This document shows, piece after piece, positions 3,827 to 58,144 of a stretch of 64,000 bases of DNA. Source of the stretch: Candidatus Magasanikiibacteriota bacterium (GTDB taxonomy: Bacteria; Patescibacteriota; Patescibacteriia; Magasanikbacterales; UBA922); the NCBI GenBank assembly GCA_018651085.1, contig JABIEQ010000002.1, positions 12,777-76,776 on the forward strand, in the 5' to 3' direction. Position numbers and translations under genes: made by a program. Under the pieces are notes generated by a model. The model did not search any database and was not told where the DNA came from. It saw only the letters and a program-made list of their open reading frames with translations. Positions within the stretch are counted from its first letter, which is position 1; each line of letters opens with the position of its first letter.

Positions 3827-4861
3827 ATGACTAATCAAAGCAACAATTATCAGGCGTGGAATGATGCTCTTGCGGATTTCCCCCATAATGCACTGATTAC
3901 AGAACAGCTGTCTTTTTTGCTTCGTTACGCTGTCCTGGCCCCTTCAACATTAAATTCACAACCTTGGCATTTTATTGTGCATGAGCATACAGTATTGGTT
4001 CAACCTGATTTATCTCGTTGGGAAGAAGCCACTGATTTATCTCAAAGACAAATGTATATTAGTATTGGAGCAGCAATTGAAAATTTTATCATTGCTGCTT
4101 CTTATTTTGGTTTATCTGTTTCAACATCACTTTCTCCGTTTGATAATGGTTTATTTTCTGTGCTTCTTGTTTGTGAACAGTCCCATGGAAAAATGACTGC
4201 ATTGGCACCGCTATGTCATGCAATCTCTTCTCGATCTACTCATCGTGGTCTATATCGTTCAGAAGAAATTTCCCCATCATTATTACGGCGTATTTGTGAA
4301 ATATCTTATGATACCTCTATTCATATTATTAGGGATCGTCGACAACGATTAATTGTTGGAGATATTATGCTTGAGTCTGGCATGACTGCTTTTTCTTTTT
4401 CTTCTTTACGTCGAGGTATTTCTCGATATAAACGATCAAACCTAACTCGTGATCACATTGGTATCCCTGGAAATACTATGGGATTTTCTTTAATAAAATC
4501 TTTTGTTGCTCCTTTAGCTATTCGTTTATTTAATGTTGTTCGTTTAAATTATAAACAACAAAAAGATATGTTGCGTTCGCACACTCCATATTTTGTTGTA
4601 CTATCGGCGAAAACAGATACCTGTATAGATTGGATTAATACTGGTCGTACATATCAACGAATTTCGCTTGTTTCTGAATCTCTTGGTATACGTTCTTCTG
4701 TTTGGGCTTCTCCTATTGAAATGGATAATGGCCGACGTCGATTAGCTGACCTTTTGTCTGTTTCTAAGCCGCAACTTTGTATGAGACTTGGGTATGGAAC
4801 GGCATATCCACATCGAAGTCCGCGGTTTCCTGCCGATGCAGTTACTGATATTATTATTTGA
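3827..4861 (+). CDS. nitroreductase-family flavoprotein (SagB/McbC-like dehydrogenase size class)
   Basis: 344 aa; N-terminal nitroreductase signature (LLRYAVLAPSTLNSQPWHF); ATG preceded by GAGGAAA RBS; first gene of cassette. Confidence 0.6.
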   Translation: MTNQSNNYQAWNDALADFPHNALITEQLSFLLRYAVLAPSTLNSQPWHFIVHEHTVLVQPDLSRWEEATDLSQRQMYISIGAAIENFIIAASYFGLSVSTSLSPFDNGLFSVLLVCEQSHGKMTALAPLCHAISSRSTHRGLYRSEEISPSLLRRICEISYDTSIHIIRDRRQRLIVGDIMLESGMTAFSFSSLRRGISRYKRSNLTRDHIGIPGNTMGFSLIKSFVAPLAIRLFNVVRLNYKQQKDMLRSHTPYFVVLSAKTDTCIDWINTGRTYQRISLVSESLGIRSSVWASPIEMDNGRRRLADLLSVSKPQLCMRLGYGTAYPHRSPRFPADAVTDIII

Positions 4862-11179: not shown

Positions 11180-11683
11180 ATGTTTCAAAAACCATCTTCA
11201 GACATAGCACTTTCACAACGATCTTCTGACGGGACTCCTGATGACGTTGAAACCGTTGTTGGTCCATCTGTTCATGTTCAAGGAGATTTTGCCTCAGAAG
11301 GGAATATTCTTGTGAAGGGGAGTGTATCTGGAAATGTGAAGACCAGTCGACTTTTGACGGTGGAGGAAGGAGCGAGTATCATGGCTAATGTGAAAGCTGG
11401 GGAAGCATTGGTATCAGGTCAGATTCATGGTAATGTGACTGCCTCTACGACTGTTGAACTTACTGCAAGTGCTCGTATCGTTGGAGACATTAAGTGTGCA
11501 AACCTTGTTGTTGAAGCTGGTGCACTTATTTATGGGAAAGTAGCTATGGTTGGTCTCAAGGATCTTGTAGGAGAAAAAAGTGAAAAAAAAAGGACTAGTA
11601 GACGAAAAAAAACACGCACAAGCTTGCCTTCTGAAGCTCATGATGATGTGTCTTCTGAAGAAGACAATATGGGGGATGTATAG
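11180..11683 (+). CDS. bactofilin-family cytoskeletal protein
   Basis: Repetitive beta-helical segments (ILVKGSVSGNV..., IHGNVTAS..., IVGDIKCANLVVEAGALIYGKV) and charged C-tail. Confidence 0.65.
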   Translation: MFQKPSSDIALSQRSSDGTPDDVETVVGPSVHVQGDFASEGNILVKGSVSGNVKTSRLLTVEEGASIMANVKAGEALVSGQIHGNVTASTTVELTASARIVGDIKCANLVVEAGALIYGKVAMVGLKDLVGEKSEKKRTSRRKKTRTSLPSEAHDDVSSEEDNMGDV

Positions 11684-13382: not shown

Positions 13383-13742
13383 TACAATTTAACCTCTAAA
13401 TTTGCCCATTTATTTTATATATAGGGTATTTTTGTGTTATTTGTAATACATAGAAGTTTACACGATAGCACAATGTTATGGTGTTTTTTTATTGTATAGA
13501 GGGCCTCTTTGTACTTGACATATTGCTCATTTTTTGTTATGGTCTCCTGTTGTGATTTGATGAGTTTTTTCGATTTTATCAATCAGTTTTTGTATAAATG
13601 AAAATTGATTGGTGAAATCGAAAGTAAAAGCTATGGCCCGGCCTCACAATCGTGTGAGGTGTCGGCATCCTGAATGGACAGGATGGCTCTGATTGTATCA
13701 GAGTGGAGCCACACTGGCTTATAGAAAGAGAAAGAGGTACAT

Positions 13743-14285
13743 ATGTCTCAAGATGAAGAGATCATCTTGACGTGGACCCCAACGGATAAGAACGCTGTGA
13801 TCACGATCAACAGCTTTCCCTTCCCTGACGGAGAAGCTCTGGAGCTGCGGGGGGTGTCTCGAAGGGGGTATCACCTTTTCTTGCCGGAAAAATCTGGCGG
13901 CGAGCTCCCAAAGATCGAGAAGGCCTTCGGCCTCTGGGCAGGCCAGATCATGGCCAAGGTGGAGCGCCGAATCGTGGTTGCGTTTGAGAGAACGCGAATT
14001 GAAGAACACGATGGATTTTATTTCATCGTTCCTCTTCGCCATGATCTGGTGTCAGCAGACACCGACGGGGACACTCTTCACGAGTTCCCTTTCGACCACA
14101 CCGTCTTCACCGCTCGTTCACAGCTCGGGACGTACCATTTTCGGATGGACATTCCCGACGGGAACGTGGAAGATGTTCGGCAGTCATTGATTGCTTGGGC
14201 CGAAGGTCTCGAGTTCGTGTACCTTTATTGGGACGAACTCGTTGCAACCGATGACCCGAAGCACACCCTCCGCATCTCCCTTTGA
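13743..14285 (+). CDS. hypothetical protein encoded in a GC-rich island (about 55% GC versus about 38% background)
   Basis: 180-aa ORF with protein-like composition; long structured 5' leader; no recognisable motif. Confidence 0.5.
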   Translation: MSQDEEIILTWTPTDKNAVITINSFPFPDGEALELRGVSRRGYHLFLPEKSGGELPKIEKAFGLWAGQIMAKVERRIVVAFERTRIEEHDGFYFIVPLRHDLVSADTDGDTLHEFPFDHTVFTARSQLGTYHFRMDIPDGNVEDVRQSLIAWAEGLEFVYLYWDELVATDDPKHTLRISL

Positions 14286-14457: not shown

Positions 14458-14490
14458 TAAAAATGATCTTCATATGAAGATCATTTTTTG
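14458..14490. terminator. bidirectional intrinsic terminator
   Basis: aaaaatgatcttcatatgaagatcatttttt perfect hairpin flanked by A/T runs, between convergent genes. Confidence 0.65.
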
Positions 14491-14510
14491 TTATTCTTTT
14501 TGTACGTGTA

Positions 14511-22853: not shown

Positions 22854-23915
22854 TTATTGGTCGTCTTTTTGTTTGTAATCTTCATCTTTAAGTATGTCGA
22901 TAATTGATTGTACCTCACCGTCAAGAATTGCTTGGATGTTATTCCAGCTATGTTTAATACGATGATCAGTAATACGATCTTGTGGGTAATTGTATGTTCG
23001 TATTTTTTCTGAACGATCACCTGATCCAATTTGGCTTTTTCTTTTGGCATCAAGCTCGGCTTGTTTTTTTGCTTGTTCTGCTTCGTAGATTCGTGCGCGA
23101 AGAACGCTCATGGCTTTTATTCTATTTTGTTGTTGAGATTTTTCGTCTTGGCATTGCACTGTTACGCCAGTTGGAATGTGCACAATTCGTACCGCACTGT
23201 ACGTTGTGTTTACACTTTGTCCACCGTTTCCACTCGCACAGTAGGTGTCAATTCTTAAGTCTTGTTGTCTGATATCAATTTCCTTTTCTTCTACCTCTGG
23301 TAATATGGCAACACTTGCTGTAGATGTATGAATTCTTCCAGATTTTTCTGTTTCTGGAATTCGTTGTACACGATGTACTCCCATTTCATATTTCATTGAT
23401 TCGTATACATTTTTTCCTGTCACATTAAAGATAACTTCTTTAAATCCACCGATACCAATACGGTTTTCACTGATGATCGCGGTCTTCCAATTGTTTTTTT
23501 CAGCGTAACGTATGTACATGCGCATAAGATTTCCTGCAAATAAAGCTGCTTCATCTCCACCTGCACCTGCACGTATTTCTACGATGACATTTTTTTTGTC
23601 CATGGGGTCCTTTGGTCTTGTCATGAGTTTTAATGTGTCTTCGAGACCTTGGACTTTTTGTTTTAATTGTTCGAGTTCTTCTTTTTCTAATTCTTTCATT
23701 TCTTCATCTGTTTCCTCTTGTAGGATGTGTTCTGTTTTTTCTACGTTTTTTTCAGTTTTTTCGAGTGTTACAATGTGCTCTACGAGATCTTTAAGATCAT
23801 TGTATTCTTGAGAGATATCTTTGATCTTTTTTGGGTCACTAAGTATGGCTTGATCTTGTAATAGTGCTTCAAGTTCTTTAAAACGGTTGTGTATGTCTAT
23901 ATATTTTTGTTTCAT
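22854..23915 (-). CDS. prfA: peptide chain release factor 1
   Basis: GGQ motif ([25 protein letters not shown]), 353 aa; prfA-prmC operon arrangement. Confidence 0.9.
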
Positions 23916-38598: not shown

Positions 38599-39758
38599 AT
38601 CCATTCATTTTTGAGTTCTTGGAATCTATTTTCTTTTATTGCTTCTCGAATTTGTTTTGATAAATTAAGAAGGAAATATAGGTTGTGCATGCTTGCAATA
38701 CTATACGCAAGCAGTTCACTCGTATTAAATAGATGGTGCAGGTATGCACGAGAGTAATGACCAACAGGGGAGTTTTCTAATAATGGATCAATTGTTATTT
38801 TGTCTCGTTTATGAACAGCATTTGTAATATTTATTCTGTAGGTATTGCTTATTTTTTTATGCACGAATAATGTTCCATTTCTTGCCATTCTCGTAGGAGA
38901 CACACAATCAAATATATCAATGCCTTTTTCTACCACATCAAATAAATCTTTTGGGGAATGCCCAAGGCCCATGGTGTAGTGGGGTTTGTCTTCTGGAATG
39001 ATAGGGTTTACCCAATCAAGAATATTTTTTGTGGCTTCCATATTATATCCAACACTTTCTCCTCCAATGGCAATACCATCAAAGTCCATACTAGAAATAA
39101 TTTTGGCGCTTTCTTCTCTAAGATTTTTATGATTTGCTCCTTGAATAATACCGAATAAGAATTGGTTGTATCCGTGATGCTTGGTATTTTTTTTATGTGT
39201 ATCTAAACATTCTTTTGCCCAACGATGCGTTCGCTCCATGGCTTTTTTTGTGTACGTGCTATCTGCTTCGTCTGGGGTGCATTCGTCAAAGGCCATGATA
39301 ATATCAGCTCCTAATTTGTGTTGTGTTTCAATGGCGCTTTTTGGAGTGAATCGATGTTCTGATCCATCGATGTGTGAACGAAAGGTAACACCCTCGTCAT
39401 CAATTTTCACAAGAGGGTATGCATTTGTTCCTTCTTTTTTTTCTTTTTGTTTTCCTAAACTGAATACTTGAAAACCACCACTGTCAGTTAGTATTGGTTT
39501 ATCCCATTTCATGAAGTTATGAAGTCCACCAAATTCGTTAATGGTGTCTTCGCCCGGACGTAGATGTAGGTGATATGTATTGGCAAGAATAATCTGTGCA
39601 CCAATACTGTTTAAATTATTTGTATTAAGACCTTTTACTGTCGCTTGTGTGCCAACCGGCATAAATATAGGTGTCTCAATATCTCCATGATCTGTATGGA
39701 TGATGCCTGTTCTTGCAAGGCTCGTATTGTCTTTGTGAGTGATTTCAAAAAATGACAT
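38595..39758 (-). CDS. tgt: queuine tRNA-ribosyltransferase
   Basis: 387 aa; Tgt conserved blocks (FMPVGTQATVKG, zinc-site Cys/His near C-terminus). Confidence 0.8.
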   Translation of the reverse strand: MSFFEITHKDNTSLARTGIIHTDHGDIETPIFMPVGTQATVKGLNTNNLNSIGAQIILANTYHLHLRPGEDTINEFGGLHNFMKWDKPILTDSGGFQVFSLGKQKEKKEGTNAYPLVKIDDEGVTFRSHIDGSEHRFTPKSAIETQHKLGADIIMAFDECTPDEADSTYTKKAMERTHRWAKECLDTHKKNTKHHGYNQFLFGIIQGANHKNLREESAKIISSMDFDGIAIGGESVGYNMEATKNILDWVNPIIPEDKPHYTMGLGHSPKDLFDVVEKGIDIFDCVSPTRMARNGTLFVHKKISNTYRINITNAVHKRDKITIDPLLENSPVGHYSRAYLHHLFNTSELLAYSIASMHNLYFLLNLSKQIREAIKENRFQELKNEWI

Positions 39759-40176
39759 AGTGTTATGTGTTTGATCCTATCAGAGTTTTGTGTGTTTTTC
39801 AATATATGTTATTTTTTGTATGTTTGCTGTTGACAGTTTTTTTCTGATATGGCAATGTGGATATATACCTATATGAATCAAGCAATTTATACAATGTGTC
39901 ATGACCTCAAGATGTGGAGTATTACGCTCCGCTCTGTTGTGTTTGGTGTGTTTACACCTTTCCGGAGGCATGTTGTATCGAAGTAATTATTTTCTACTTT
40001 TATAAAACAAGCCGCCGGATAAATCTGGCGGCTTTTTTCTTTGTTGTCTAAGAGTGTACATCTTACCTAGTTGTATACCCTTAGGCCCCAACGTATACCC
40101 TTTACACGTGACACGATGATATGGGATTTGGCCTGATCCCACATATATTGTCGTTGTTCTTTTCTGGAGAAGGACT

Positions 40177-40431
40177 ATGGTTCCCTTGCCTCCTGGTGCG
40201 AGTGCTCATTTTTACACCGTCTATGGACGGCGGTTCGATTCTGACGGTAACCCTCTCGACGGAACGTCGACTCCTATGCCTCACCGGCCTGGTGGGTCAC
40301 ACATGGATTTCGGGCCTGACCCCGAGCGACCGAGCCCTCCGGGGGTTCTGCTCGAGTTCACGCTTAAGAAGGATGATGATGGCGAGGCTCCCGCCTCGCG
40401 TCCCGCTGCCCCTGCGGCGGTTGCTCGATGA
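40177..40431 (+). CDS. hypothetical Pro/Gly/Asp-rich small ORF within GC-rich island B (may be non-coding)
   Basis: 84-aa ORF in a 62% GC segment, GGAGAAGG RBS-like upstream; long ORFs arise by chance in GC-rich DNA. Confidence 0.2.
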   Translation: MVPLPPGASAHFYTVYGRRFDSDGNPLDGTSTPMPHRPGGSHMDFGPDPERPSPPGVLLEFTLKKDDDGEAPASRPAAPAAVAR

Positions 40432-40590
40432 TCGAGCGCCCTTCTGACGGTCCATCCGTATCCTCCTCCAACACAGACGGACACTTCATTTGCAAGTGTC
40501 CGTCTGCCCGCCTCATATGTCATAAACATTGTTTGTGGCATATGAAGCGGGTTTGCCTTTCTTTTTTTGTCTGATACAATTATAAACACT

Positions 40591-40935
40591 ATGTTATATC
40601 ATAAGAGTGATGCAAAATCATTTACTATTCCTGGTGGTACTGAAGGTGTATTGTATCCACCTAGCTTAAAAGGGGATCAGAGTGTTGCTGTTATTTCGAT
40701 GGATGGTCATTATCCTAAAGAAGGGTACTCACGAAATGATGTATGTACGGAAACGTTGTATCTTCTTGAGGGGGCATTTGAAATTGAATATGATGGAGCA
40801 TGGCATACACTTATTCCAGGTGACATATTTATGATATTACCTGATCATAAATATAGAACAAAAGGAAAAGGAAAAGCATGTGTATTTATTACTCCATCGT
40901 GGGATAGTGCGCAAAATCATATTACGTTAACTTAA
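40591..40935 (+). CDS. cupin-domain protein
   Basis: Small beta-barrel protein with cupin-like motifs; TTG at 40567, first ATG 40591. Confidence 0.45.
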   Translation: MLYHKSDAKSFTIPGGTEGVLYPPSLKGDQSVAVISMDGHYPKEGYSRNDVCTETLYLLEGAFEIEYDGAWHTLIPGDIFMILPDHKYRTKGKGKACVFITPSWDSAQNHITLT

Positions 40936-40943
40936 ATTTTCTT

Positions 40944-42068
40944 ATGCAACCTAAAGTTATTTATTCTGTTGGATCATATAGTGACATGTTTTATCGGATA
41001 GGGATTAATATTCCTGATCCATTTTTTTACTTTGATTTTGGGGACAAACAATATGTTTTTTTAGACCACCGAGAATATGGCGTGTTTGAAGAACATAATA
41101 CAAATGATGCTATTACTTTGGTTCTTTTAAATCCACTTCTTGAAAAAGCAATGGCCATGGATGAAAAATCATCTCTTACTTGTCGGCTTGCGTTTTTACT
41201 TTTTCAAGAGTATGACTTGAGTTCTAAAGAGATTCAGGTTCCAACAAATTTTCCACTTGATCTTGCTGATTATCTTCGTGCTAAAGGGATGACATTAATT
41301 CCTACAGCTCCTCTTTACCCTCAACGATTATATAAAACAAAAGAAGAAGCCGGATACATTCGTGAAGCCCTTGGGTTAACCTATAGTGGATATGAATGTG
41401 TGGAAGATGTGTTACGTGCGTCTACTATTTCGGGAGATACTCTTTTATATGAAGGGAATGTTCTTACAAGTGAATTTTTAAGCGCAAAAGTTGAGCAAAC
41501 GTTACTTTCACGAGATTTAGCATCAGAGTGCGGTATGATTGTGTCATGTGGTTCTCATGCGGCGATTCCACATCATCGTGGAGCTGGTCCGATTCGCCCA
41601 CACCAAACTATTATTTGTGACTTATTTCCACGGCATAGAAAAACTGGATATTTTAGTGACATTACAAGAACGTTTGTAAAAGGTACTGTGTCTGACGAGA
41701 TTAAAAAAATGTATGATGCTGTGTATGAAGCGCAGACTACTGCTGTGAAGATGATTAAGCCGGGTGTAGAAAGAAGTGATGTGCATCAAGCATGTATTGA
41801 TATCTTTTTAGCTCGTGGGTATCACGCAGGGGATAAGGGGTTTACTCATGGAACTGGTCATGGACTTGGTATTGATTTACATGAAGCACCGTATGTTCGT
41901 GGGGCGTCTGAAGTTTCTGGCGTGTTTGAACCAGGACATGTTGTGACAGTTGAACCAGGATTGTATTATCCAGAGATTGGTGGTATTCGGATTGAAGACG
42001 TGGTATGGGTAACAGAAGACGGGAATGATAACCTTACAACGTATCATAAGGATTATCATATTGCGTAG
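40944..42068 (+). CDS. M24-family Xaa-Pro aminopeptidase/prolidase-like
   Basis: Creatinase/prolidase N-domain plus pita-bread metal ligands (HGTGHGLGIDLHEAP, VEPGLY...IRIED). Confidence 0.75.
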   Translation: MQPKVIYSVGSYSDMFYRIGINIPDPFFYFDFGDKQYVFLDHREYGVFEEHNTNDAITLVLLNPLLEKAMAMDEKSSLTCRLAFLLFQEYDLSSKEIQVPTNFPLDLADYLRAKGMTLIPTAPLYPQRLYKTKEEAGYIREALGLTYSGYECVEDVLRASTISGDTLLYEGNVLTSEFLSAKVEQTLLSRDLASECGMIVSCGSHAAIPHHRGAGPIRPHQTIICDLFPRHRKTGYFSDITRTFVKGTVSDEIKKMYDAVYEAQTTAVKMIKPGVERSDVHQACIDIFLARGYHAGDKGFTHGTGHGLGIDLHEAPYVRGASEVSGVFEPGHVVTVEPGLYYPEIGGIRIEDVVWVTEDGNDNLTTYHKDYHIA

Positions 42069-42763
42069 AGGGTGTGTATAGTTTTTTTGTACATTCCTTG
42101 CAGAATGGTTTTTCCTTTGGTATAGTGAAAAAAGTGAAATATATAATAATGTATGAGATTACTTGGTAAGACAACTCTGTTTATTTCTTTCCCCTGGCAT
42201 GTGGTAGCTTTTTCTTTTCGCCACATTCTGTTTATTGTGGGAGGGAACGGGGTATATGCTTATCAACACGAATGTATGTAGTGGTTGAGTAATAAGATTG
42301 TATACCCCACAGATGTGGGGTATTTTATTTGAGTATGGATAGAAGAAATGATTATCATTTCTTCTATGCGTACGCAAGTACGCAGGCCCCCGCAATACTG
42401 GGAAATATAGCGGTGGGAAGAAAAACACAACACTCTGGGAGTGAGGCTTTCTATCTAACATATATAGGTAAAAGGTCTCATTCCTTCGCTCTTTACCATT
42501 TTACACTGCAAGAGTCACCATTTGGTGGCTTTTTGCTTTGTTGACACCAATTTATTTTTATAGTACGGTATATCGTCGTATCTAAACATAAAGAAAAGCA
42601 TATCTTTATTTGGTATATTTTTCTTTCTTTTTAGTGATTCGTTGCTCGAAAGGAACTGGTCGTGCACTGCGCCAGGCGTATCTGCGAAGCAGTATCTGTC
42701 ATTCTTAGATCCAGCCATAGCGCTGGTGCGGGAGAAAAAGAAATGCCGAACTCGTTGAAATAA

Positions 42764-43249
42764 TTGAAACCGGGGGTTTACCGGCTTCATGATCCTAGTA
42801 GGCCAGGAGGTCGCTGGGAGTGGGTCCGCCTTGATGAGGTATCTCGAATTTTGGGGGTGAGCCCCTCGGACGTGCTAGAGCGGTACAAGCCGCTTTTCTG
42901 GCAACCCGGCGAGGATCTGCTTCAGATGGAGATGTCTCTCATGACCTCTTCTGGTGTGTTCTTGACCCATGTTCCGGGAGATCTTCGTTGGCTCTACGTA
43001 CCGAAGGGGTTCTCTGATGATGTCCTCACGGTCGCTAAACTGGGGATTGATTCTTTCCAAAAAGAGATGATGCCCCACTACATGACTACGGTTCCGCACG
43101 CGACGGTGCGAGCCTTTCGTCCTGTCCGGGGGCAGTGTCTTCTCATCGTGGGATACGTCGGCGAGGAACGCTACGATTCCACAGACGGGCGTAATCTGGC
43201 TCAACCACTCCTCAGGAGCCCCTGGCGCCCCTGTGGTCCTCCCATTTGA
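42764..43249 (+). CDS. hypothetical protein with N-terminal excisionase/AlpA-like HTH motif, in GC-rich island C
   Basis: 161-aa ORF at about 58% GC; VRLDEVSRILGVSPSDVLERY resembles HTH_17 (L..E.A..LGVS..T.YR); overlapping antisense ORF judged spurious. Confidence 0.35.
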   Translation: MKPGVYRLHDPSRPGGRWEWVRLDEVSRILGVSPSDVLERYKPLFWQPGEDLLQMEMSLMTSSGVFLTHVPGDLRWLYVPKGFSDDVLTVAKLGIDSFQKEMMPHYMTTVPHATVRAFRPVRGQCLLIVGYVGEERYDSTDGRNLAQPLLRSPWRPCGPPI

Positions 43250-43942
43250 ACTACAATAAGTCATCACGCATTGCATGGCGTTTGATGCCAGAGGCTTGTC
43301 CTCTGTTGGTTAGCTCATACCTATTTGAGCCGCGTCCTGCGTTACGGATCCTTTCCTTTAATGTCTTAGCGTTGATGCAACAGCTTCTAGGACCCTTCCC
43401 TTTGTTATCTTTTATGTAAAGATGGTAGGGGAAAGTGGGTATAAAGACACTTCACATTTGTGGGGTGTTTTTTGTTGTGGATAACTTATGGATATTTTTC
43501 TTGACCACTGTATATTCATGATGTACAGTACTTATGTTGTGGGGCGACAAGTGTTGTCTCCCCCGTTTTTCTTCCCCGTTACCTGGAGCCCGTTATGAAC
43601 GGCATCCCCAACATCCCTCTCTTCCCGATGGCTTTCCCGGCACACCCCGCGCGCCCGCTGCGTCCGGCCCACCCTGGCATCCCGCACACCCCGTGCTGGC
43701 CCTAGTCTGACGCCGATCGGCGAGAGAGAGATGGACCTTTCCCCTGCGGGGGAAGGATGAAGGCTTTCGGGTCGACCAACGCTGCTTGCAGCCTGGTCGA
43801 CCCGAGGGTTCGATCATATTTCACGCATTGCGTGTTTTTTTTATTGCATTAATTTTTTTATATTGTTGGTAAGGTAATTAAAAACGCCTCAAAGGGCGTT
43901 TTTAATTATGTTCTTTTATGATTGGATTGTTGTTGTTTGTAT

Positions 43943-44713
43943 TTAAAATTTACTTTTTAATACAACGTGATCAACAAAGTTTTTAATAATTTTATGTGTA
44001 TCAGGTGTTTTCATAATTCTGTCAGTAATGCCTTGTAAATCTTTTTTAAGATTTGGGTATTTATCTTTATACCAAGCTAGTCGTTCAACAATGTCTTCGT
44101 AATCAATTTCTGGGTGAAATTGAAAAGCATAAAATGGTTTATTTTTTATTTTAAAAATATGAATGGGGCATTTTTCTGCGTGTGCAAGAAGAATAGCGTC
44201 TGGTGGAAGTTTGTCTGCGAGCTTTGAGTGGAAGGTGACTGCAGAAAAAGGATTAGGTATGTCTTTAAATACGGGATCAACTTGACCTTCACTTGTTAGA
44301 TGGATGTATGCTGATCCATCTTCCATGTTTTCGTTATCAACAACCATCCGTCCATCAAATAAGTCAATTGCTACTTGAAATCCAAAACACGAAATGAGTG
44401 TTGGGATTCCTTGTTCTTTTGCATAGCTTAAGATGTCTTGCATTGATTCAATGTATGGATACCGTTCTTTATCGTATTTCACAATAACACCAGTAGCTTC
44501 TTTTGGATCATCACTTGTTCCACCCATAAAAAGCATGTCATATTGGTCAAGGATTGTTTTATCAAAAATTGGTGTGTTAAACACATCAATACTTGTACAT
44601 TGTTCTTTTTCAATTCCTGCAAACCGTACAAATTGATCATGTTCACGAGTACGTGTTTGTTCATCTTTTCGAAATTGGATGAGGAGTGCTTTTATATTGG
44701 TTCTGTCTTTCAT
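43943..44713 (-). CDS. class I glutamine amidotransferase-like protein
   Basis: GATase1-like fold with Cys nucleophile region (ISCFGFQ) and His/Glu pair near C-terminus. Confidence 0.55.
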   Translation of the reverse strand: MKDRTNIKALLIQFRKDEQTRTREHDQFVRFAGIEKEQCTSIDVFNTPIFDKTILDQYDMLFMGGTSDDPKEATGVIVKYDKERYPYIESMQDILSYAKEQGIPTLISCFGFQVAIDLFDGRMVVDNENMEDGSAYIHLTSEGQVDPVFKDIPNPFSAVTFHSKLADKLPPDAILLAHAEKCPIHIFKIKNKPFYAFQFHPEIDYEDIVERLAWYKDKYPNLKKDLQGITDRIMKTPDTHKIIKNFVDHVVLKSKF

Positions 44714-54382: not shown

Positions 54383-57300
54383 ATGGGGTTATTTAATATT
54401 ACTACTATGTTTCGTAGGCATTCTTTTTCGTCGATAGAAAAGGTGGGAATTTATACGTTAGCCTTTTTATTTATTGGAATGGAACTTTGGGGAGCTTTTT
54501 TCTTACCATCTTCATTTCAGTCAGAAAATGTGTCTTCTCCTTTGTTTTATCCAGTTGTACAAGCCGCTACTGTAACCATTGATGTTACTACTTCGACTGA
54601 TGCGTATGACACTGGTGCTGGTGCTAATGGATCTTGTTCACTTCGAGAAGCTATCGGTAAAGCAAATGGTGATAATCTTCCTGATTGCCCTTATTCTGCT
54701 GAACCGGTGTCAGGGGACACTATACAAATTAATTTATCATCAGGTACGACATACAATCTTACTCGTGATGGAGCAGGGCTTGGGGATGATAATAATGATA
54801 GAGGAGATTTAGACATTGCTACGTCTACAGCTGTAACTATAGCTATCGCACCAACCGGAACAGCATATGCAACTATTGATGCGAGTGGTCTTGGTACACT
54901 TGAGCGTGTAATGCATATAGTGACAGACGGGCCATCTATATCTTTAGATAAAATGGTGATTACTTCAGGAGATACCAACGGAGCCTTTAGTGTTGGTGAA
55001 GGACGTGGTGCTGGTATTTATATTGCTAACGGAGACGTTACTATTAATAATAGTGTGGTGAAGTCAAATGACTCTGCATTTGATGGTGGGGGAATTTATG
55101 TAGAAAGCACAGGAACGTTAACACTTACGAGTACAACTCTTCATTCAAACACTGTAAGTGGTGCTGCTGGTGGGGATGCCTTTGGTGGAGGAATTTATAA
55201 CGATGGGACGGATCTTACTATTACAAGTAGTACTTTTACATCAAATGTTACGTCAAATACCACAGTTAATGATGGTCATGGTGGAGGATTATATACTTCT
55301 GGTGGAACGGTAACAATTACAAGTAGTACCTTTTCTTTAAATCAAGCTGCTAGAGAAAGTGAATCAGCTGATGGGGGAGCAGTATATCAAGGAGGAGGGA
55401 CTGTGACTATTACCGATAGTACTCTTTCTACAAATTCTTCGGGAGATGATGGAGGTGGATTGTATGTTGGTAGTGCAACAACAACTATCACGAATTCTAC
55501 GTTTACATTAAACACAGCCTCTACTACTCGTAGTGCCGCCGCCGGTGGTGGACTATATGGAACTGCGGGAATTGTGACTATTACTAGTAGTACGTTTAGT
55601 TATAATTACGCAGGGTCTAGTGGTGGTGGAACGAGGGTGGATAGTAGCTCTACAATTACGATTACAAGTAGTACATTTAAAGGAAATTCTGCACAAGCAA
55701 ATGGTGGAGGAGTGTATGTTGATACTGGAACAGCGACAATTACTGGTGGTCTTTATACACTGAACATGGCGACATCAAGTTCTCGTTCTGGTGGTGCGAT
55801 ATATAACGATACGAGTGCGATGACGATTACGAGTGCAACTATTCGAGGAAATGAAGCCGGAGCAAGTGGTGGAGGAATTCTTTCTTCAGGGACAACACTT
55901 ACACTTAGTGATTCAATAATTTCGTTTAATACTTCAACGGATGGTGGTGGAATTTATTCAGGAGGTACCACCTTTATTATGAGTGATAGTAGTATCACTT
56001 CTAATCTTGCTTCTTCTACAAATGCACAAGGGGGAGGATTATATTTAAATTCTGGTACGGTAACAATTACGAGTAGTACAATTAATACAAATCTTGCTGA
56101 CGATAATGGTGGAGGAATTTATATGGGGACTGCTTCTACTACTATTTCTGATACGACCATTACTTCTAATACTGCTTCTTCGACTCGTACGAATGCTTTT
56201 GGTGGGGGAATTGATAATTTTAATGGACTTCTTTTGATGACAAGTAGTACGATTAGTTCTAACACTGCTGGTGGAGATGGTGGAGGAATTTATAATAGTG
56301 CTACAACAACTTTAGCGAATGTCACTATTAGTTCAAATACTGCGAATGATGATGGTGGTGGGGTATTTAATAATGCTGATACGACAAGTTTCAGTCATGT
56401 TACTGTTGTATTAAATAGTGCTGCTAGTGATGCTGCTGGCCTGTGGGTTCAATCTGATAATGTTACTCTTGTTAATACGTTATTTGCTACAAATACGTTG
56501 TCTAATGGAAATTTAGAAAACTGTCAGGTGAATGGTGGAAGTTTGACGTCTAGTGGAAATAATTTAGAGGCGTCTACGAGTACTTTGTATAGTTGTAATT
56601 TAACGGAAACATCTGATGTTACTACTACTGTGGCAATTGCTACTATTTTAAACACGACCCTTGCTTTGAATGGTGGAAAGACGATGAATCATGCACTTGT
56701 GACGAGTAGTCCTGCTATTGATGTTGGTGGGTTTCCATCATTTGGTTCTGATCAACGAGGAACATTGCGACCACAAGGAGCAATGCCTGATATTGGATCA
56801 TATGAATTTGTGCCTTTAGATCAAGGGGTGACAGTTTCTCAATCAGCTATTAGTGTGAGTGAAGGAAGTGGTGCTAGTACATATACTCTTGTCTTAGATG
56901 TTGTTCCTCGTGCTGACGTTGATGTGACGGTTGCTGGTTCCTCGGGCGATATTTCTATTAGTCCGTCCTCTCTTACTTTTTCTACTTCAACATGGAATGT
57001 TCCGCAGACAGTGAGTGTGACTGCTGTTGATGATTCGACTGTGGAGAGTACTGAAAGTGCAACAGTTACTCATACGGCATCTACTACGGATAGTGCGTAT
57101 GCTACAGCTGGTATTTCATCTGTTACTGTTACTATTACTGATAATGATACTAATTCAAGCGGTGGTGGAAGCGTTATTGTGCATAAAATCCCATCTTTTT
57201 CTTCTGATACGCCAATTCAAATTAATGGTGGTGCTCTTACTGTAGATGATACTGCTGTTATTCTTTCTTTTGATGTGGCTACTTCTCCTGATGTTATTCA

Positions 57301-58144
57301 AATGGCTGTTGAAAATGGCCAAGGAATATCTTCATCTGACTTTGTACCCTACACTAAAACGATGGCGTGGGAATTAAGTCCTGGAAATGGAAAGAAACAA
57401 GTGTGTGCTCGTTTTAGAACAGCACAAGGAGCTGTTCGTGATGCGTGTACGTCTATTGAATTAGTTGGTCAGGAATTTAATGCTCCTTCTGAAATAACAT
57501 GTGCGGTTTCTTCTGGTAATGCATATAAACATCCTGATGCATTACGTAAAGATGTGTGGTATGTCTTTCCTGGTGTGAATGGTGAACAATGTACGAAGCG
57601 GGCTTTTTCTGGGGCATATATTTTCTTTACGTACTTCTCTGATTGGAGTCAGGTTGTGTTAGATAAAGAAATTGATGTGGTAAAAGAAGATACTCTTATG
57701 TTTATGCCATATGGTCCATTGTTACCTCGGCAGTATGGAGCGCTTGTAAAGACCACAGATAACGCCGATGTGTATTTATTAGTTGGTGATCAATCATATA
57801 CGTTTGATTCTCTTTCTACTCTTCGTACACTTGGATACAATACGTCTTACATCATTGATGTTGATGGACGGGTCCTTGATCAATATACGTATCTTGGAGA
57901 CATTGATTATATTGATCATCATCCGACATATGCTTTGATTAAGTATCAAGGTGCTTCTACCGTGTATTATGTTGATGAAAAGGATAATGTACAGGTTCGT
58001 CGTGAAGTTGATAGTTTAGAGACCCTTCGCGCACTTGGTCTTCGTACTGATCTTGATATTATACGAAATGTTGCGTTGTTTTCTCCAACAGATGCGTACG
58101 TGATCTATCCTGATGGAGATGCATTTACCTTGAATGACATATAG
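54383..58144 (+). CDS. giant surface protein with polymorphic-membrane-protein (Pmp)-type beta-helix repeats and C-terminal Ig/Calx-beta-like domains
   Basis: 1253 aa; N-terminal TM/signal; more than 15 tandem repeats carrying GG[GA][IVL]Y and F[TS]xN motifs; Thr/Ser-rich; C-terminal VTAVDDSTVE-type beta-sandwich segments. Confidence 0.7.
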   Translation: MGLFNITTMFRRHSFSSIEKVGIYTLAFLFIGMELWGAFFLPSSFQSENVSSPLFYPVVQAATVTIDVTTSTDAYDTGAGANGSCSLREAIGKANGDNLPDCPYSAEPVSGDTIQINLSSGTTYNLTRDGAGLGDDNNDRGDLDIATSTAVTIAIAPTGTAYATIDASGLGTLERVMHIVTDGPSISLDKMVITSGDTNGAFSVGEGRGAGIYIANGDVTINNSVVKSNDSAFDGGGIYVESTGTLTLTSTTLHSNTVSGAAGGDAFGGGIYNDGTDLTITSSTFTSNVTSNTTVNDGHGGGLYTSGGTVTITSSTFSLNQAARESESADGGAVYQGGGTVTITDSTLSTNSSGDDGGGLYVGSATTTITNSTFTLNTASTTRSAAAGGGLYGTAGIVTITSSTFSYNYAGSSGGGTRVDSSSTITITSSTFKGNSAQANGGGVYVDTGTATITGGLYTLNMATSSSRSGGAIYNDTSAMTITSATIRGNEAGASGGGILSSGTTLTLSDSIISFNTSTDGGGIYSGGTTFIMSDSSITSNLASSTNAQGGGLYLNSGTVTITSSTINTNLADDNGGGIYMGTASTTISDTTITSNTASSTRTNAFGGGIDNFNGLLLMTSSTISSNTAGGDGGGIYNSATTTLANVTISSNTANDDGGGVFNNADTTSFSHVTVVLNSAASDAAGLWVQSDNVTLVNTLFATNTLSNGNLENCQVNGGSLTSSGNNLEASTSTLYSCNLTETSDVTTTVAIATILNTTLALNGGKTMNHALVTSSPAIDVGGFPSFGSDQRGTLRPQGAMPDIGSYEFVPLDQGVTVSQSAISVSEGSGASTYTLVLDVVPRADVDVTVAGSSGDISISPSSLTFSTSTWNVPQTVSVTAVDDSTVESTESATVTHTASTTDSAYATAGISSVTVTITDNDTNSSGGGSVIVHKIPSFSSDTPIQINGGALTVDDTAVILSFDVATSPDVIQMAVENGQGISSSDFVPYTKTMAWELSPGNGKKQVCARFRTAQGAVRDACTSIELVGQEFNAPSEITCAVSSGNAYKHPDALRKDVWYVFPGVNGEQCTKRAFSGAYIFFTYFSDWSQVVLDKEIDVVKEDTLMFMPYGPLLPRQYGALVKTTDNADVYLLVGDQSYTFDSLSTLRTLGYNTSYIIDVDGRVLDQYTYLGDIDYIDHHPTYALIKYQGASTVYYVDEKDNVQVRREVDSLETLRALGLRTDLDIIRNVALFSPTDAYVIYPDGDAFTLNDI

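Follow-up and report, generated by a model that had tools for sequence, protein, structure and literature searches.

Island C, a GC-rich segment at 42640-43860 of the 64,000-nt stretch of DNA analysed here (the window), is probably a small, horizontally acquired ORFan islet lying downstream of an M24 aminopeptidase gene. A patch of foreign DNA would sit in a variable intergenic slot of a low-GC marine Patescibacterium and would carry as cargo one genuine gene, belonging to a two-member family and predicted to encode a beta-beta-HTH module joined to an uncharacterised domain of about 110 residues. Codon 7, a TAA, appears to sever the SD sequence and ATG (42743) from the gene body, which would be made solely by termination-reinitiation at TTG 42764, or not at all. 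Because the start is cut off in this way, the gene looks like decaying or down-tuned cargo rather than a working recombination directionality factor.

Two units would follow the gene. One is a hairpin-rich 3' region that contains a terminator-like hairpin; the other spans about 300 nt at 64% GC and has its own promoter-like site and terminator. The second is most simply read as what remains of donor DNA, a gene end and its GC-rich hairpins, and less likely as a small RNA or micro-ORF. The proposed route of entry is uptake of DNA followed by illegitimate recombination into an intergenic slot rich in terminators.

The host and the integrity of the assembly

The host, a clonal marine member of the Patescibacteria/CPR from Saanich Inlet, has a GC content of 37.7%, and CPR/Patescibacteria groups were the source of the closest homologues of its M24 protein. 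The window is cellular chromosome, with genes for ribosomal proteins, RNase P and aminoacyl-tRNA synthetases. Same-species contigs from Saanich Inlet and related metagenomes were 99.9-100% identical to it, including independently made MEGAHIT, SPAdes, Logan, JGI and NCBI contigs. Rare differences among the 20 same-species contigs compared were scattered and looked like low-coverage errors; a search of these contigs for SNPs informative for covariation returned only such error-like differences.

Misjoining of GC-rich reads into a low-GC contig would also produce a compositional jump, and many contigs do end within the island (at 42815, 43157, 43289, 43558, 43702, 43722, 43740 in two contigs, 43771, 43801 and 43900). 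These ends fall in the hairpin-rich, GC-rich part and not at the junctions, which fits a drop-out of coverage (2-5x depth) rather than a junction artefact. Nine contigs from different assemblers and samples (L005-L008, L013, L014 and L016-L018) span the whole of island C, match exactly across both junctions and are 100% identical within the island. We give a chimera or contamination practically no credence.

Base composition and layout of the island

GC content in 300-nt windows was 0.377 ± 0.044 across the stretch and exceeded 0.50 in 32 of 1274 windows, all in three islands, A (13.65-14.1 kb), B (40.05-40.3 kb) and C (42.65-43.6 kb). The three islands showed no similarity to each other by blastn and tblastx, and the ORF of island A is unrelated to that of island C. 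Islands B and C have in common a 24-nt terminator tail on their left, and a 14-nt repeat lies around island A. The parts of island C and its surroundings are as follows.

42302-42330, + strand: terminator of the M24 aminopeptidase gene, ATACCCCACAGATGTGGGGTAT then a T-run; left edge of the variable interval
42330-42545, + strand: chain of near-perfect hairpins, about 41% GC, ending in a terminator at 42510-42543
42640-43860: whole of island C, GC 0.53
42640-43249, + strand: first GC-rich block, GC 0.51-0.56, holding the protein-coding gene
42640-42763: upstream part of this block, GC 0.51
42743-43249: ORF, GC 0.56
43250-43480, + strand: hairpin-rich 3' region with five stem-loops, GC 0.44, RNAfold z = -4.6
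43481-43534: spacer, GC 0.28
43535-43815, + strand: second GC-rich block, GC 0.64, C-rich on the + strand
43874-43909: bidirectional terminator with a 16-bp stem, shared with the convergent glutamine amidotransferase gene; right-hand limit of island C
43943-44713, - strand: convergent class-I glutamine amidotransferase gene

The two GC-rich blocks are separated by AT-rich spacers that look like promoter and terminator sequence. The GC jump to about 58% given in the preliminary description fits the ORF approximately, but the 600-nt tail varies in composition along its length and is not GC-rich throughout.

The ORF has a GC3 of 0.60, compared to 0.238 ± 0.035 in host genes (host maximum 0.34). 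It ends in TGA, as do the ORFs of islands A and B, while 50 host genes use TAA 37 times, TAG 12 times and TGA once. Together with a close relative that lacks the island (L021, below), the GC3 and the TGA stop point to horizontal acquisition: base composition, codon usage and stop usage are all deviant, and close relatives lack the island at the orthologous position. No donor lineage was identified, the single homologue of the ORF lying on a 786-nt contig. Collections of phages, plasmids, IMG/VR, GTDB genomes and JGI contigs yielded no match to the island C ORF. In three of them (GTDB genomes, JGI metagenome contigs and IMG/VR), scans also gave no match to the M24 protein, to a two-sequence profile or to a DNA pattern spanning the TAA codon, and both the species and the ORF family are apparently absent from these three.

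The same interval in relatives

In the nearest relative, L021, the cupin, M24 and UvrD genes are contiguous (their products share 62%, 64% and 57% identity with those of the window), and only 24 nt separate M24 from UvrD, so that the whole 2.7-kb interval is an indel. The island is thus an insertion relative to its closest relative, as had been proposed, with its absence documented at this one close relative locus. Other genes follow M24 in L022, L024 and L026, and neither tblastx nor HMM searches found homology to the island in the slots of these three or of L021.

The interval also includes the hairpin chain at 42330-42545, which lies outside the coordinates first flagged and is missing from L021 with the rest. 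Its RNAfold MFE was -81.6, compared to -49.2 ± 4.0 in shuffles (z = -8.1), and Rfam gave it one match, to rnk_pseudo, at 24 bits (gathering score 55). The chain may represent an independent small RNA or the debris of an old element.

Unrelated GC-rich genes without Pfam matches occupy the same slots in several relatives, whose core genes have about 35-52% GC. The slot gene of L021 has 64.6% GC (core genes 35-41%), L024 has two paralogous GC-rich genes, and L026 has several ORFs at 63-71% GC. Such genes hint at a recurrent process and not a one-off accident. Tblastn and HMM searches gave no signal that islands B and C are decayed copies of the relatives' GC-rich 382-414-aa family. Island C, like island B of the window, could be one case of recurrent capture of short ORFan cassettes into terminator-rich slots flanking the cupin-M24 pair. 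Each GC-rich cassette would bring a promoter-like site and a hairpin or terminator of its own, and the 64% GC tail unit would be a new structured RNA travelling with the cassette; we consider this full scheme improbable. If true, it would mean an undescribed integrase-free capture mechanism, or uptake of GC-rich host DNA by an episymbiont. A tiny ORFan islet is ordinary on its own and the lineage-wide pattern is mildly interesting; should that pattern reflect a specific capture mechanism, or DNA passing from a GC-rich host, it would be relevant to the way in which ultra-small episymbionts gain genes.

The same slot genes can be turned the other way, to argue that the gene is native and vertically inherited, that its GC reflects a gene-specific constraint and that the flanking hairpins are the usual regulatory or terminator elements of a normal operon. 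Relatives do keep GC-rich genes without Pfam matches there, L021 among them, and the only homologue of the ORF likewise has AT-rich flanks. Against this, the orthologous slots of L021, L022, L024 and L026 lack the gene, the family has two members among 1.84e9 representative proteins, the gene has a TGA stop and a GC3 more than 10 SD away from host genes, and its start is disrupted. We regard native inheritance as very improbable.

Coding status and apparently disrupted start of the ORF

The 161-codon ORF is present as first described, and three features overlap in this part of the island.

42730-42763, + strand: ancestral start region, with SD sequence GGGAG at 42730-42734, ATG at 42743-42745, the peptide MPNSLK and TAA at 42761-42763
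42764-43249, + strand: ORF of 161 codons, TTG start directly after the TAA, TGA stop
42875-43276, - strand: antisense 'shadow' ORF of 133 codons, annotated by several gene callers

Among 1.84 billion representative proteins, the ORF had a sole colinear homologue, the 181-aa P0124, which is colinear over about 94% of the ORF (pairwise BLASTP 6e-15; phmmer 2.3e-4 against the 1.84e9 proteins). The family has two members only among about 15 billion predicted proteins. Identity between the two at codon positions 1, 2 and 3 was 0.48, 0.50 and 0.25, a pattern indicating that the + strand ORF is truly protein-coding. The antisense ORF was rejected as a coding frame: it gave 29.6 bits across species, compared to 58.5 bits in sense, and shares codon position 2 with the + frame. 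Several gene callers nevertheless gave this shadow ORF or a shortened 102-aa version of the gene.

Other candidate relatives were discarded. Three giant repeat proteins (P0122, P0123 and P0125) reached phmmer E-values of up to 6e-41 over 17 stretches, but these are summed weak tandem-repeat matches and not colinear. HitA, from a sequence-profile search of the PDB, is a chance match (E = 1.2). The likeness between the C-terminus of the ORF (...CGPPI) and that of a 92-aa ORF of L026 (...GGPPI) is also chance, since BLASTP finds nothing. Searches of Pfam, PHROGs, NCBIfam and PADLOC gave nothing significant for the ORF, P0124, the island A and B ORFs or the stop-to-stop frames of the tail. The pairing of a likely HTH N-terminus with an unknown domain in a two-member family is of modest wider interest.

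The frame extends upstream of the TTG. GGGAG lies 8 nt upstream of ATG 42743, and codon 7 is an in-frame TAA followed at once by TTG, whereas P0124 has Lys (AAA) there. The N-termini read MPNSLK*LKP in the window and MESILRKVKP in P0124, and BLASTP of the read-through frame aligned residue 1 to residue 1. ATG 42743 is therefore taken as the ancestral start, because P0124 shows it. The sequence L023 has AAAGGAG-N7-ATG; its 5' and 3' flanks were not significantly conserved with those in the window (score 22, compared to 16.9 ± 2.4 in shuffles, of which 14 of 300 reached it). The TAA was the same in every contig covering the codon. It follows that the gene is either a fresh pseudogene or made by re-initiation. 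Judged by its one homologue it is a nonsense-disrupted pseudogene, although re-initiation at TTG 42764 may still yield a product, and the gene is probably on its way out.

The N-terminal module and the question of a mobile element

The preliminary description read island C as the remnant of an integrative element, with the ORF as an excisionase/AlpA-type recombination directionality factor and the tail as an att-like region. The motif on which this was based, VRLDEVSRILGVSPSDVLERY, is present at residues 21-41, and residues 5-40 are predicted to form a beta-beta-helix-turn-helix (AF2 pLDDT over residues 1-61 was 78 overall and about 90 over residues 21-40). The N-terminus thus probably forms a small beta-beta-helix-turn-helix module, and this predicted module is probably nucleic-acid binding, so that the ORF product may bind DNA. 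Pfam returned three HTH families only for residues 17-42, all sub-threshold (HTH_AsnC-type, E = 0.029; HTH_26, E = 0.099; HTH_17, E = 0.17).

The general claim of an HTH is therefore probable from the AF2 model, but the assignment to excisionases is not borne out. The N-terminal 49 aa gave 12.6 bits against HTH_17, compared to a cut-off of 27 bits; the full ORF had no match to HTH_17 at E ≤ 1, and P0124 had none to any HTH family in Pfam at E ≤ 10. Foldseek searches of PDB and BFVD returned nothing at E < 0.3 and no excisionase among the matches. Small excisionases are shorter than the 161-168 aa of this protein and are not known to have such a conserved C-terminal part, which itself has no match.

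Mobility functions were also missing. Among the scanned or annotated ORFs of at least 120 aa in the 64-kb window, we found no integrase, recombinase, transposase or phage protein; the precomputed Pfam annotation covers 30.9-54.7 kb, and a 1253-aa repeat protein has no Pfam match recorded. No tRNA gene adjoins island C, the closest being about 11.6 kb off. As for att sites, no direct or inverted repeat of at least 12 nt brackets 42640-43860. The sole 14-nt repeat pair, TCACGCATTGCATG at 43264-43277 and TCACGCATTGCGTG in the 43822-43842 terminator (13/14 identical), brackets the whole tail but not the island.

An integrative element thus has in its favour the resemblance of the N-terminal motif to HTH_17 (a weak match at residues 20-38, E = 0.17), the beta-alpha-alpha core predicted by AF2, the foreign and inserted nature of the segment and the 14-nt direct repeat (43264 and 43821) enclosing the tail. 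By our estimate, chance alone would yield about 0.2 such 14-mer pairs, and one copy is part of a terminator hairpin. With the HTH_17 score far under its cut-off, no excisionase among the Foldseek matches, a protein longer than expected, no partner gene or adjoining tRNA and no repeats flanking the whole island, we judge such a remnant very unlikely. The outcome is a correction of annotation: the antisense shadow ORF and the 102-aa version are miscalls, and the excisionase/att reading does not hold.

Structure of the tail

The features downstream of the ORF, in addition to the blocks given above, are as follows.

~43445-43472, + strand: terminator-like hairpin, the last stem-loop of the 3' region, then TTTTTTGTTG (T6); seen in the RNAfold structure only
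43501-43529, + strand: promoter-like TTGACC-17 nt-TACAGT, 9/12 matches, in the 28% GC spacer
43595-43705, + strand: proline-rich ORF of 36 codons, MNGIPNIPLFPMAFPAHPARPLRPAHPGIPHTPCWP, with GGAG 6 nt upstream
43767-43778 and 43794-43805, + strand: perfect 12-bp inverted repeat TCGGGTCGACCA/TGGTCGACCCGA with a 15-nt loop
43822-43842, + strand: intrinsic terminator CACGCATTGCGTG then T8

As first described, the tail ends in a T-run, here the CACGCATTGCGTG hairpin plus T8, before the convergent glutamine amidotransferase gene. Of the two long perfect stems reported, TCGGGTCGACCA/TGGTCGACCCGA is indeed a perfect 12 bp, which RNAfold lengthens to about 17-20 bp, but CCTTTCCCC...GGGGGAAGG (43736-43756) pairs with one bulge and so is not perfect. 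Terminator-like sites are frequent in 39700-44100 (13, compared to 4.2 ± 2.0 in shuffles), and GC-rich stem-loops followed by a T-run, as in intrinsic terminators, were found at 42302-42323, 42510-42533, 43822-43834 and 43874-43909. The hairpin at ~43445-43472 was not listed by the consensus terminator scan. The terminal hairpin is not an integron attC: inspection revealed no R''/R' core sites, and both intI and a cassette array are lacking.

The tail falls into two units, one of about 230 nt and one of about 300 nt, each bounded by terminators. The suggestion of a single large, ornate ncRNA did not survive this division, nor did it find support in Rfam 15, where no match reached half the gathering score. 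The Infernal/Rfam check, which took in ROOL, GOLLD, group II domains, twister, hammerhead, pistol and HDV-like ribozymes, gave no island match at gathering thresholds; the best sub-threshold matches were terminator-like (STnc350, 22.6/60 bits; CrcZ, 16.7/95 bits).

One or two novel structured small RNAs of regulatory or structural function might still be encoded on the + strand at 43250-43480 and/or 43535-43842, the second transcribed from its own promoter. Folding is consistent with this, as the z values of -4.6 (43250-43480) and -3.9 (43530-43845) on the + strand exceeded all shuffles (0 of 100-200 matched the real sequence in either stretch). So are the promoter-like site, the terminator, the terminator-like hairpin, the 64% GC of the second block, which tops even the tRNAs of the genome (58-59%), and a tail free of any convincing long ORF. 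The minus strand of 43530-43845, however, folds nearly equally (z = -3.4), as simple inverted repeats in GC-rich DNA would be expected to. The region has no more promoter-like sites than shuffles do (12, compared to 9.6 ± 3.1), Rfam families give no match, phage and plasmid collections hold no homologous sequence, and all copies are clonal. GC3 > GC1 > GC2 periodicity across 43540-43720 also resembles coding or formerly coding sequence. Small RNAs are thus an unlikely explanation of the tail as a whole; taken alone, the block at 43535-43815, which contains C-rich direct repeats of the form CCSGCACACCCCGYGC, may represent a small structured RNA, or else part of a GC-rich donor gene together with its hairpins.

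Within this block, the 36-codon proline-rich ORF might be a real small-protein gene, making the island a two-gene cassette. GGAG lies 6 nt before its ATG, GC1/GC2/GC3 in frame are about 0.67/0.59/0.85, promoter-like and terminator sites stand on either side, and the gene caller of one assembly (L003) reported it. At 36 codons this periodicity is marginal, the composition is of low complexity (P, H, A) and overlaps the C-rich direct repeats, and family searches gave no match. A second gene is accordingly improbable.

Relation to known systems

An acquired islet, which we favour, has to accommodate several observations. P0124, whose contig has AT-rich flanks, is itself only about 47% GC, so the family could be native to AT-rich lineages and GC-enriched otherwise. 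Neither a donor nor a GC-rich relative of the gene was found, and the folding of the tail, the promoter-like site and the two terminators look more organised than debris.

Genomic islands and horizontal gene transfer are documented in Patescibacteria, at up to 13% of genome length (PMC12455944). Like these islands and islets (PMC12455944), island C is deviant DNA between core genes, carries a gene without known relatives and is missing from the nearest relative. Unlike them, it is about 1.2 kb long with one gene, an early in-frame stop in that gene, and no mobility gene, tRNA target or donor found.

ROOL, GOLLD, OLE, HEARO and self-cleaving ribozymes share with the tail an intergenic, GC-rich and strongly folding character in an AT-rich genome. 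No covariance model for these RNAs matched the tail even at E up to 1-5, and in place of one RNA of 500-800 nt there are two units of ~230-300 nt split by a terminator-like hairpin and a promoter-like site.

Free-standing homing endonuclease genes occupy intergenic slots, as the island C ORF does, and the best BFVD matches of the AF2 N-terminus were repeatedly HNH, GIY-YIG, 'intron-associated' and NUMOD1-like proteins, all non-significant; NUMOD1-type modules are DNA-binding parts of such endonucleases. Unlike homing endonucleases, the ORF gave BFVD E-values of at least 0.35 and has no nuclease domain in Pfam, NCBIfam or PHROGs.

Both family members share with excisionase/AlpA/MerR HTH proteins (HTH_17, PF12728) a beta-strand and the HTH pattern [hydrophobic]xLxE[VL]xxxLG[VW]xPxxVxExY. 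They differ from HTH_17 excisionases in a length of 161-181 aa, an extra conserved domain and the lack of a partner integrase and att sites.

Phage 'morons' are self-contained units of promoter, gene and terminator that have a deviant GC content and lie between conserved genes as insertions. Island C differs from them in lying in a cellular chromosome and not a prophage, with no PHROG match, but resembles them in its promoter-like site, single ORF, terminator, atypical composition and intergenic position.

Composition and setting of island C

The window is part of a low-GC bacterial chromosome (mean GC 37.7%) with housekeeping genes (aminoacyl-tRNA synthetases, RF1/PrmC, ribosomal proteins, NusA, YidC, EF-G and RNase J), one class-A RNase P RNA and three tRNAs. 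The best named homologues of the M24 aminopeptidase, encoded left of island C (42640-43860), are from CPR/Patescibacteria (Uhrbacteria, Kerfeldbacteria, Doudnabacteria and Magasanikbacteria). Exact-protein matches to the window came from Saanich Inlet and related marine metagenomes and from the NCBI MAGs GCA_018672955.1 and GCA_018647845.1. Each of the 20 contigs retrieved was 99.9-100% identical to the window; the population of this species is effectively clonal, and within-species comparison is therefore uninformative on constraint. Elsewhere in the window, a 78-nt (26-aa) repeat (GGG.Y...ITSSTF..N) occurs in seven or more diverged copies within a 1253-aa ORF (54383-58144), which has no Pfam match on record and resembles a large, repetitive surface protein.

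Three regions of the 64 kb, and no others, exceeded 50% GC in 300-nt windows. The GC-rich island of the preliminary description is one of them, though its composition is a mosaic, ranging from 0.28 to 0.64 by segment:

About 13.65-14.4 kb: island A, from the GC scan
About 40.05-40.55 kb: island B, from the GC scan
42640-42763: island C, first segment, GC 0.51
42743-43249: island C, ORF segment, GC 0.56
43250-43480: island C, segment following the ORF, GC 0.44
43481-43534: island C, spacer, GC 0.28
43535-43815: island C, last segment, GC 0.64

Past 43815 the GC content falls to about 0.27. Nine contigs from different assemblers cross both junctions of island C with zero mismatches inside it, which rules out an assembly artefact. 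Many other contigs end within 42.8-43.9 kb, as would fit coverage drop-out in GC-rich, hairpin-rich DNA at 2-5x depth.

Foreign origin

The GC3 of ORF161, the 161-codon plus-strand ORF at 42764-43249, is 0.60, compared to 0.238 ± 0.035 (maximum 0.34) for 50 host genes. Those host genes end in TAA (37), TAG (12) or TGA (1), while TGA ends the ORFs of islands A, B and C alike. The single host TGA sits in a TTGA start/stop overlap (4858-4861). A release factor gene (22854-23915) adjoins prmC and is therefore probably RF1.

In the closest relative locus found (contig L021; cupin 62%, M24 64% and UvrD 57% identical to the window proteins), just 24 nt lie between M24 and UvrD, and thus the 2.7-kb interval of the window is an indel relative to L021. 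This interval holds an AT-rich hairpin unit, island C and an AT-rich class-I glutamine amidotransferase (GATase) gene convergent with the island. Three other relatives (L022, L024 and L026) carry other genes downstream of M24. Searches of phage, plasmid, IMG/VR, GTDB-genome and JGI-contig collections returned nothing similar and pointed to no donor. The GC3, TGA stop and indel bear out the suggestion that the segment is foreign; genomic islands have already been reported in Patescibacteria (PMC12455944).

ORF161 is a gene with an in-frame stop

The ORF first noted in island C and the peptide motif quoted for it are both in the sequence. ORF161 belongs to no curated family in Pfam, PHROGs, NCBIfam or PADLOC, and a word-indexed search of 5.8 billion clusters returned a truncated self-match only. 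Exhaustive phmmer against 1.84 billion representatives gave a single credible relative, P0124 (181 aa, on contig L023), colinear with about 94% of ORF161 (pairwise BLASTP 6e-15). Three giant repeat proteins were rejected as homologues, their scores being summed repeat matches. A profile of the two sequences found no further members.

Both loci also carry long antisense ORFs (window 42875-43276, minus strand, 133 aa; L023 127-654, minus strand), in a register that shares codon position 2 with the sense frame, and several gene callers chose the antisense ORF. Identity between the two genes at plus-frame codon positions 1, 2 and 3 is 0.48, 0.50 and 0.25, and aligning the sense translations gives 58.5 bits, the antisense ones 29.6. 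These values make the antisense ORF a shadow and place the plus frame under purifying selection; by sequence comparison, ORF161 is a real plus-strand gene. Public gene calls for this species list either the 133-aa antisense ORF or a truncated 102-aa sense ORF, and both annotations are probably wrong. A putative 57-codon hydrophobic ORF without a family match (43246-43419, plus strand) begins at a TTG that overlaps the TGA of ORF161 as TTGA, the same type of overlap as in the host's sole TGA-terminated gene pair.

P0124 begins MESILRKVKPALYKL, and 7 nt separate an upstream AAAGGAG from its ATG. The window has GGGAG at 42730-42734, an 8-nt gap, then ATG at 42743 and the frame MPNSLK-TAA-LKPGVYRL. 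Opposite the TAA (42761-42763), P0124 has Lys7 (AAA), and the alignment of the read-through frame begins at residue 1. ORF161 starts at a TTG immediately after the TAA, and this TTG lacks its own Shine-Dalgarno motif. Read against this one homologue, the simplest explanation, and a fairly probable one, is that one A-to-T nonsense mutation arose and became fixed in the population. It would either have killed the gene or left it expressed via termination-reinitiation at the adjacent TTG.

The N-terminal module

Full-length ORF161 matched only HTH_AsnC-type in Pfam (E=0.19). Its first 49 residues matched three HTH families only, each on residues 17-42 and far below cut-off (HTH_AsnC-type, E=0.029; HTH_26, E=0.099; HTH_17, E=0.17); none of the three matched P0124. 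AlphaFold2 with the two-sequence alignment performed poorly (pLDDT 44), and residues 1-61 alone gave pLDDT 78 (about 90 over 21-40), with two strands followed by a helix-turn-helix. Given the sub-threshold families and this prediction, a small HTH-like module at the N-terminus is likely. Foldseek against PDB and BFVD found no significant match and no excisionase; the weak BFVD matches were repeatedly homing endonuclease DNA-binding modules (every E at least 0.35). Hence the proposed excisionase/AlpA-like HTH holds as far as an HTH-like module; membership in the excisionase/RDF family is not demonstrated, and the excisionase/AlpA family has nothing comparable to the conserved C-terminal part (about 110 residues).

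The tail and the absence of mobility functions

The tail of island C is two plus-strand units split by the 28% GC spacer:

43250-43480, plus strand: unit 1, 44% GC, five hairpins (z = -4.6), the last followed by TTTTTTGTTG
Spacer between the units, plus strand: promoter-like TTGACC-17-TACAGT
43535-43815, plus strand: unit 2, 64% GC, C-rich, fold z = -3.9

The T-run and the convergent GATase gene described at the end of the tail are both present. Of the two stems described, the 12-bp inverted repeat is perfect (43767-43778/43794-43805) and the second is slightly bulged. A large ncRNA is not supported: the tail divides in two, no Rfam 15 family scored more than half its gathering score, including when the filters were relaxed for a short stretch, and island C has no demonstrated membership in any Rfam family. 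Unit 2 may be a small RNA, as it folds and terminates in CACGCATTGCGTG then T8; its minus strand folds nearly as well (z = -3.4). It may instead be a micro-ORF: its GC3>GC1>GC2 periodicity matches the frame of a proline-rich ORF of 36 codons that has GGAG 6 nt upstream. No reading frame of the tail matches any protein family. We favor debris of a GC-rich donor gene with its hairpins.

The idea of an integrative element with its directionality factor and att-like region fares no better. No integrase, recombinase, transposase or phage protein was found among the window's non-shadow ORFs of at least 120 aa, covered by Pfam scan or precomputed Pfam annotation; no tRNA gene adjoins island C, and no direct or inverted repeat brackets 42640-43860. 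A 14-nt repeat, TCACGCATTGC[A/G]TG, at 43264 and 43821 brackets the tail only; we estimate about 0.2 such pairs by chance, and the terminator hairpin itself makes up the right copy. Membership of island C in integrative elements is not demonstrated.

Other GC-rich islets

Relatives carry unrelated GC-rich genes without Pfam matches (60-71% GC) in the same intergenic slots around cupin-M24; they are listed here, followed by the ORFs of the window's own islands A and B:

L021, 158-1306: 382-aa gene, 64.6% GC compared to 35-41% for core genes
L024, 1400-2644 and 4629-5828: two paralogues, 65% and 60% GC, flanking the cupin-M24 pair
L026, 3561-3900, 6121-6740, 8861-9600 and 11141-11460: several ORFs, 63-71% GC
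Window, 13743-14285: island A ORF, 180 aa, no family match, TGA stop
Window, 40177-40431: island B ORF, 84 codons, proline-rich, good SD (GGAGAAGGA), TGA stop

The relatives' slot genes, which include a conserved 382-414-aa family, are 15-25 points GC-richer than their hosts and unrelated to the window's islands. The Logan contig L026 terminates in Illumina adapter sequence (AGATCGGAAGAGCACACGTCTG; 11456-11477), so that end is an artefact.

Island B (40050-40550; about 60% GC, with a 13-bp perfect hairpin at about 40478-40510) resembles neither island A nor island C and has no family match. Just two copies of a 24-nt terminator tail, AT[C/T]TGG[C/T]GGCTTTTT[T/G]CTTTGTTG, occur in the 64 kb (40023-40046 and 42520-42543; 21/24 identical), one immediately left of island B and the other immediately left of island C. 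The match may mark a junction or target common to both islands, or may reflect a chance resemblance in the shape of the terminators. A perfect 14-nt direct repeat, TCATTTTTTGTTAT (13527-13540 and 14481-14494; about 0.17 matches expected in the whole window), flanks island A, which lies 1 kb downstream of tRNA-Leu, with the left copy of the repeat overlapping a promoter-like TTGACA-17-TATGGT and the right copy being a terminator tail. The relatives' slot genes, the 24-nt tail and this repeat hint at a recurrent process of GC-rich capture, which we nevertheless consider improbable.

Just left of island C, an AT-rich chain of near-perfect hairpins (42330-42545, plus strand) ends in its own terminator (42510-42543) and has an RNAfold MFE of -81.6 (shuffles -49.2 ± 4.0; z = -8.1). 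It matches no Rfam family, is absent from L021 and may represent a small RNA or the debris of a palindromic element.

A proposed history

Island C is a foreign insertion-like patch that holds one selected protein-coding gene, from a family of two, with a stop in frame at codon 7; it has terminator-like hairpins and no mobility genes. The initial observation is confirmed and its interpretation partly supported, the segment being foreign and an HTH likely. The DNA would have entered by uptake or transfer and become fixed in an intergenic slot rich in terminators, where an insertion does no harm. Its product would have bound nucleic acid through the N-terminal HTH, and the gene would now be silenced or weakly expressed by re-initiation, with the downstream GC-rich unit as a passenger. 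We hold this reading as a whole with moderate confidence. Island C works in the same way as a horizontally acquired ORFan islet or a phage 'moron', in which promoter, gene and terminator form an autonomous unit of deviant GC.
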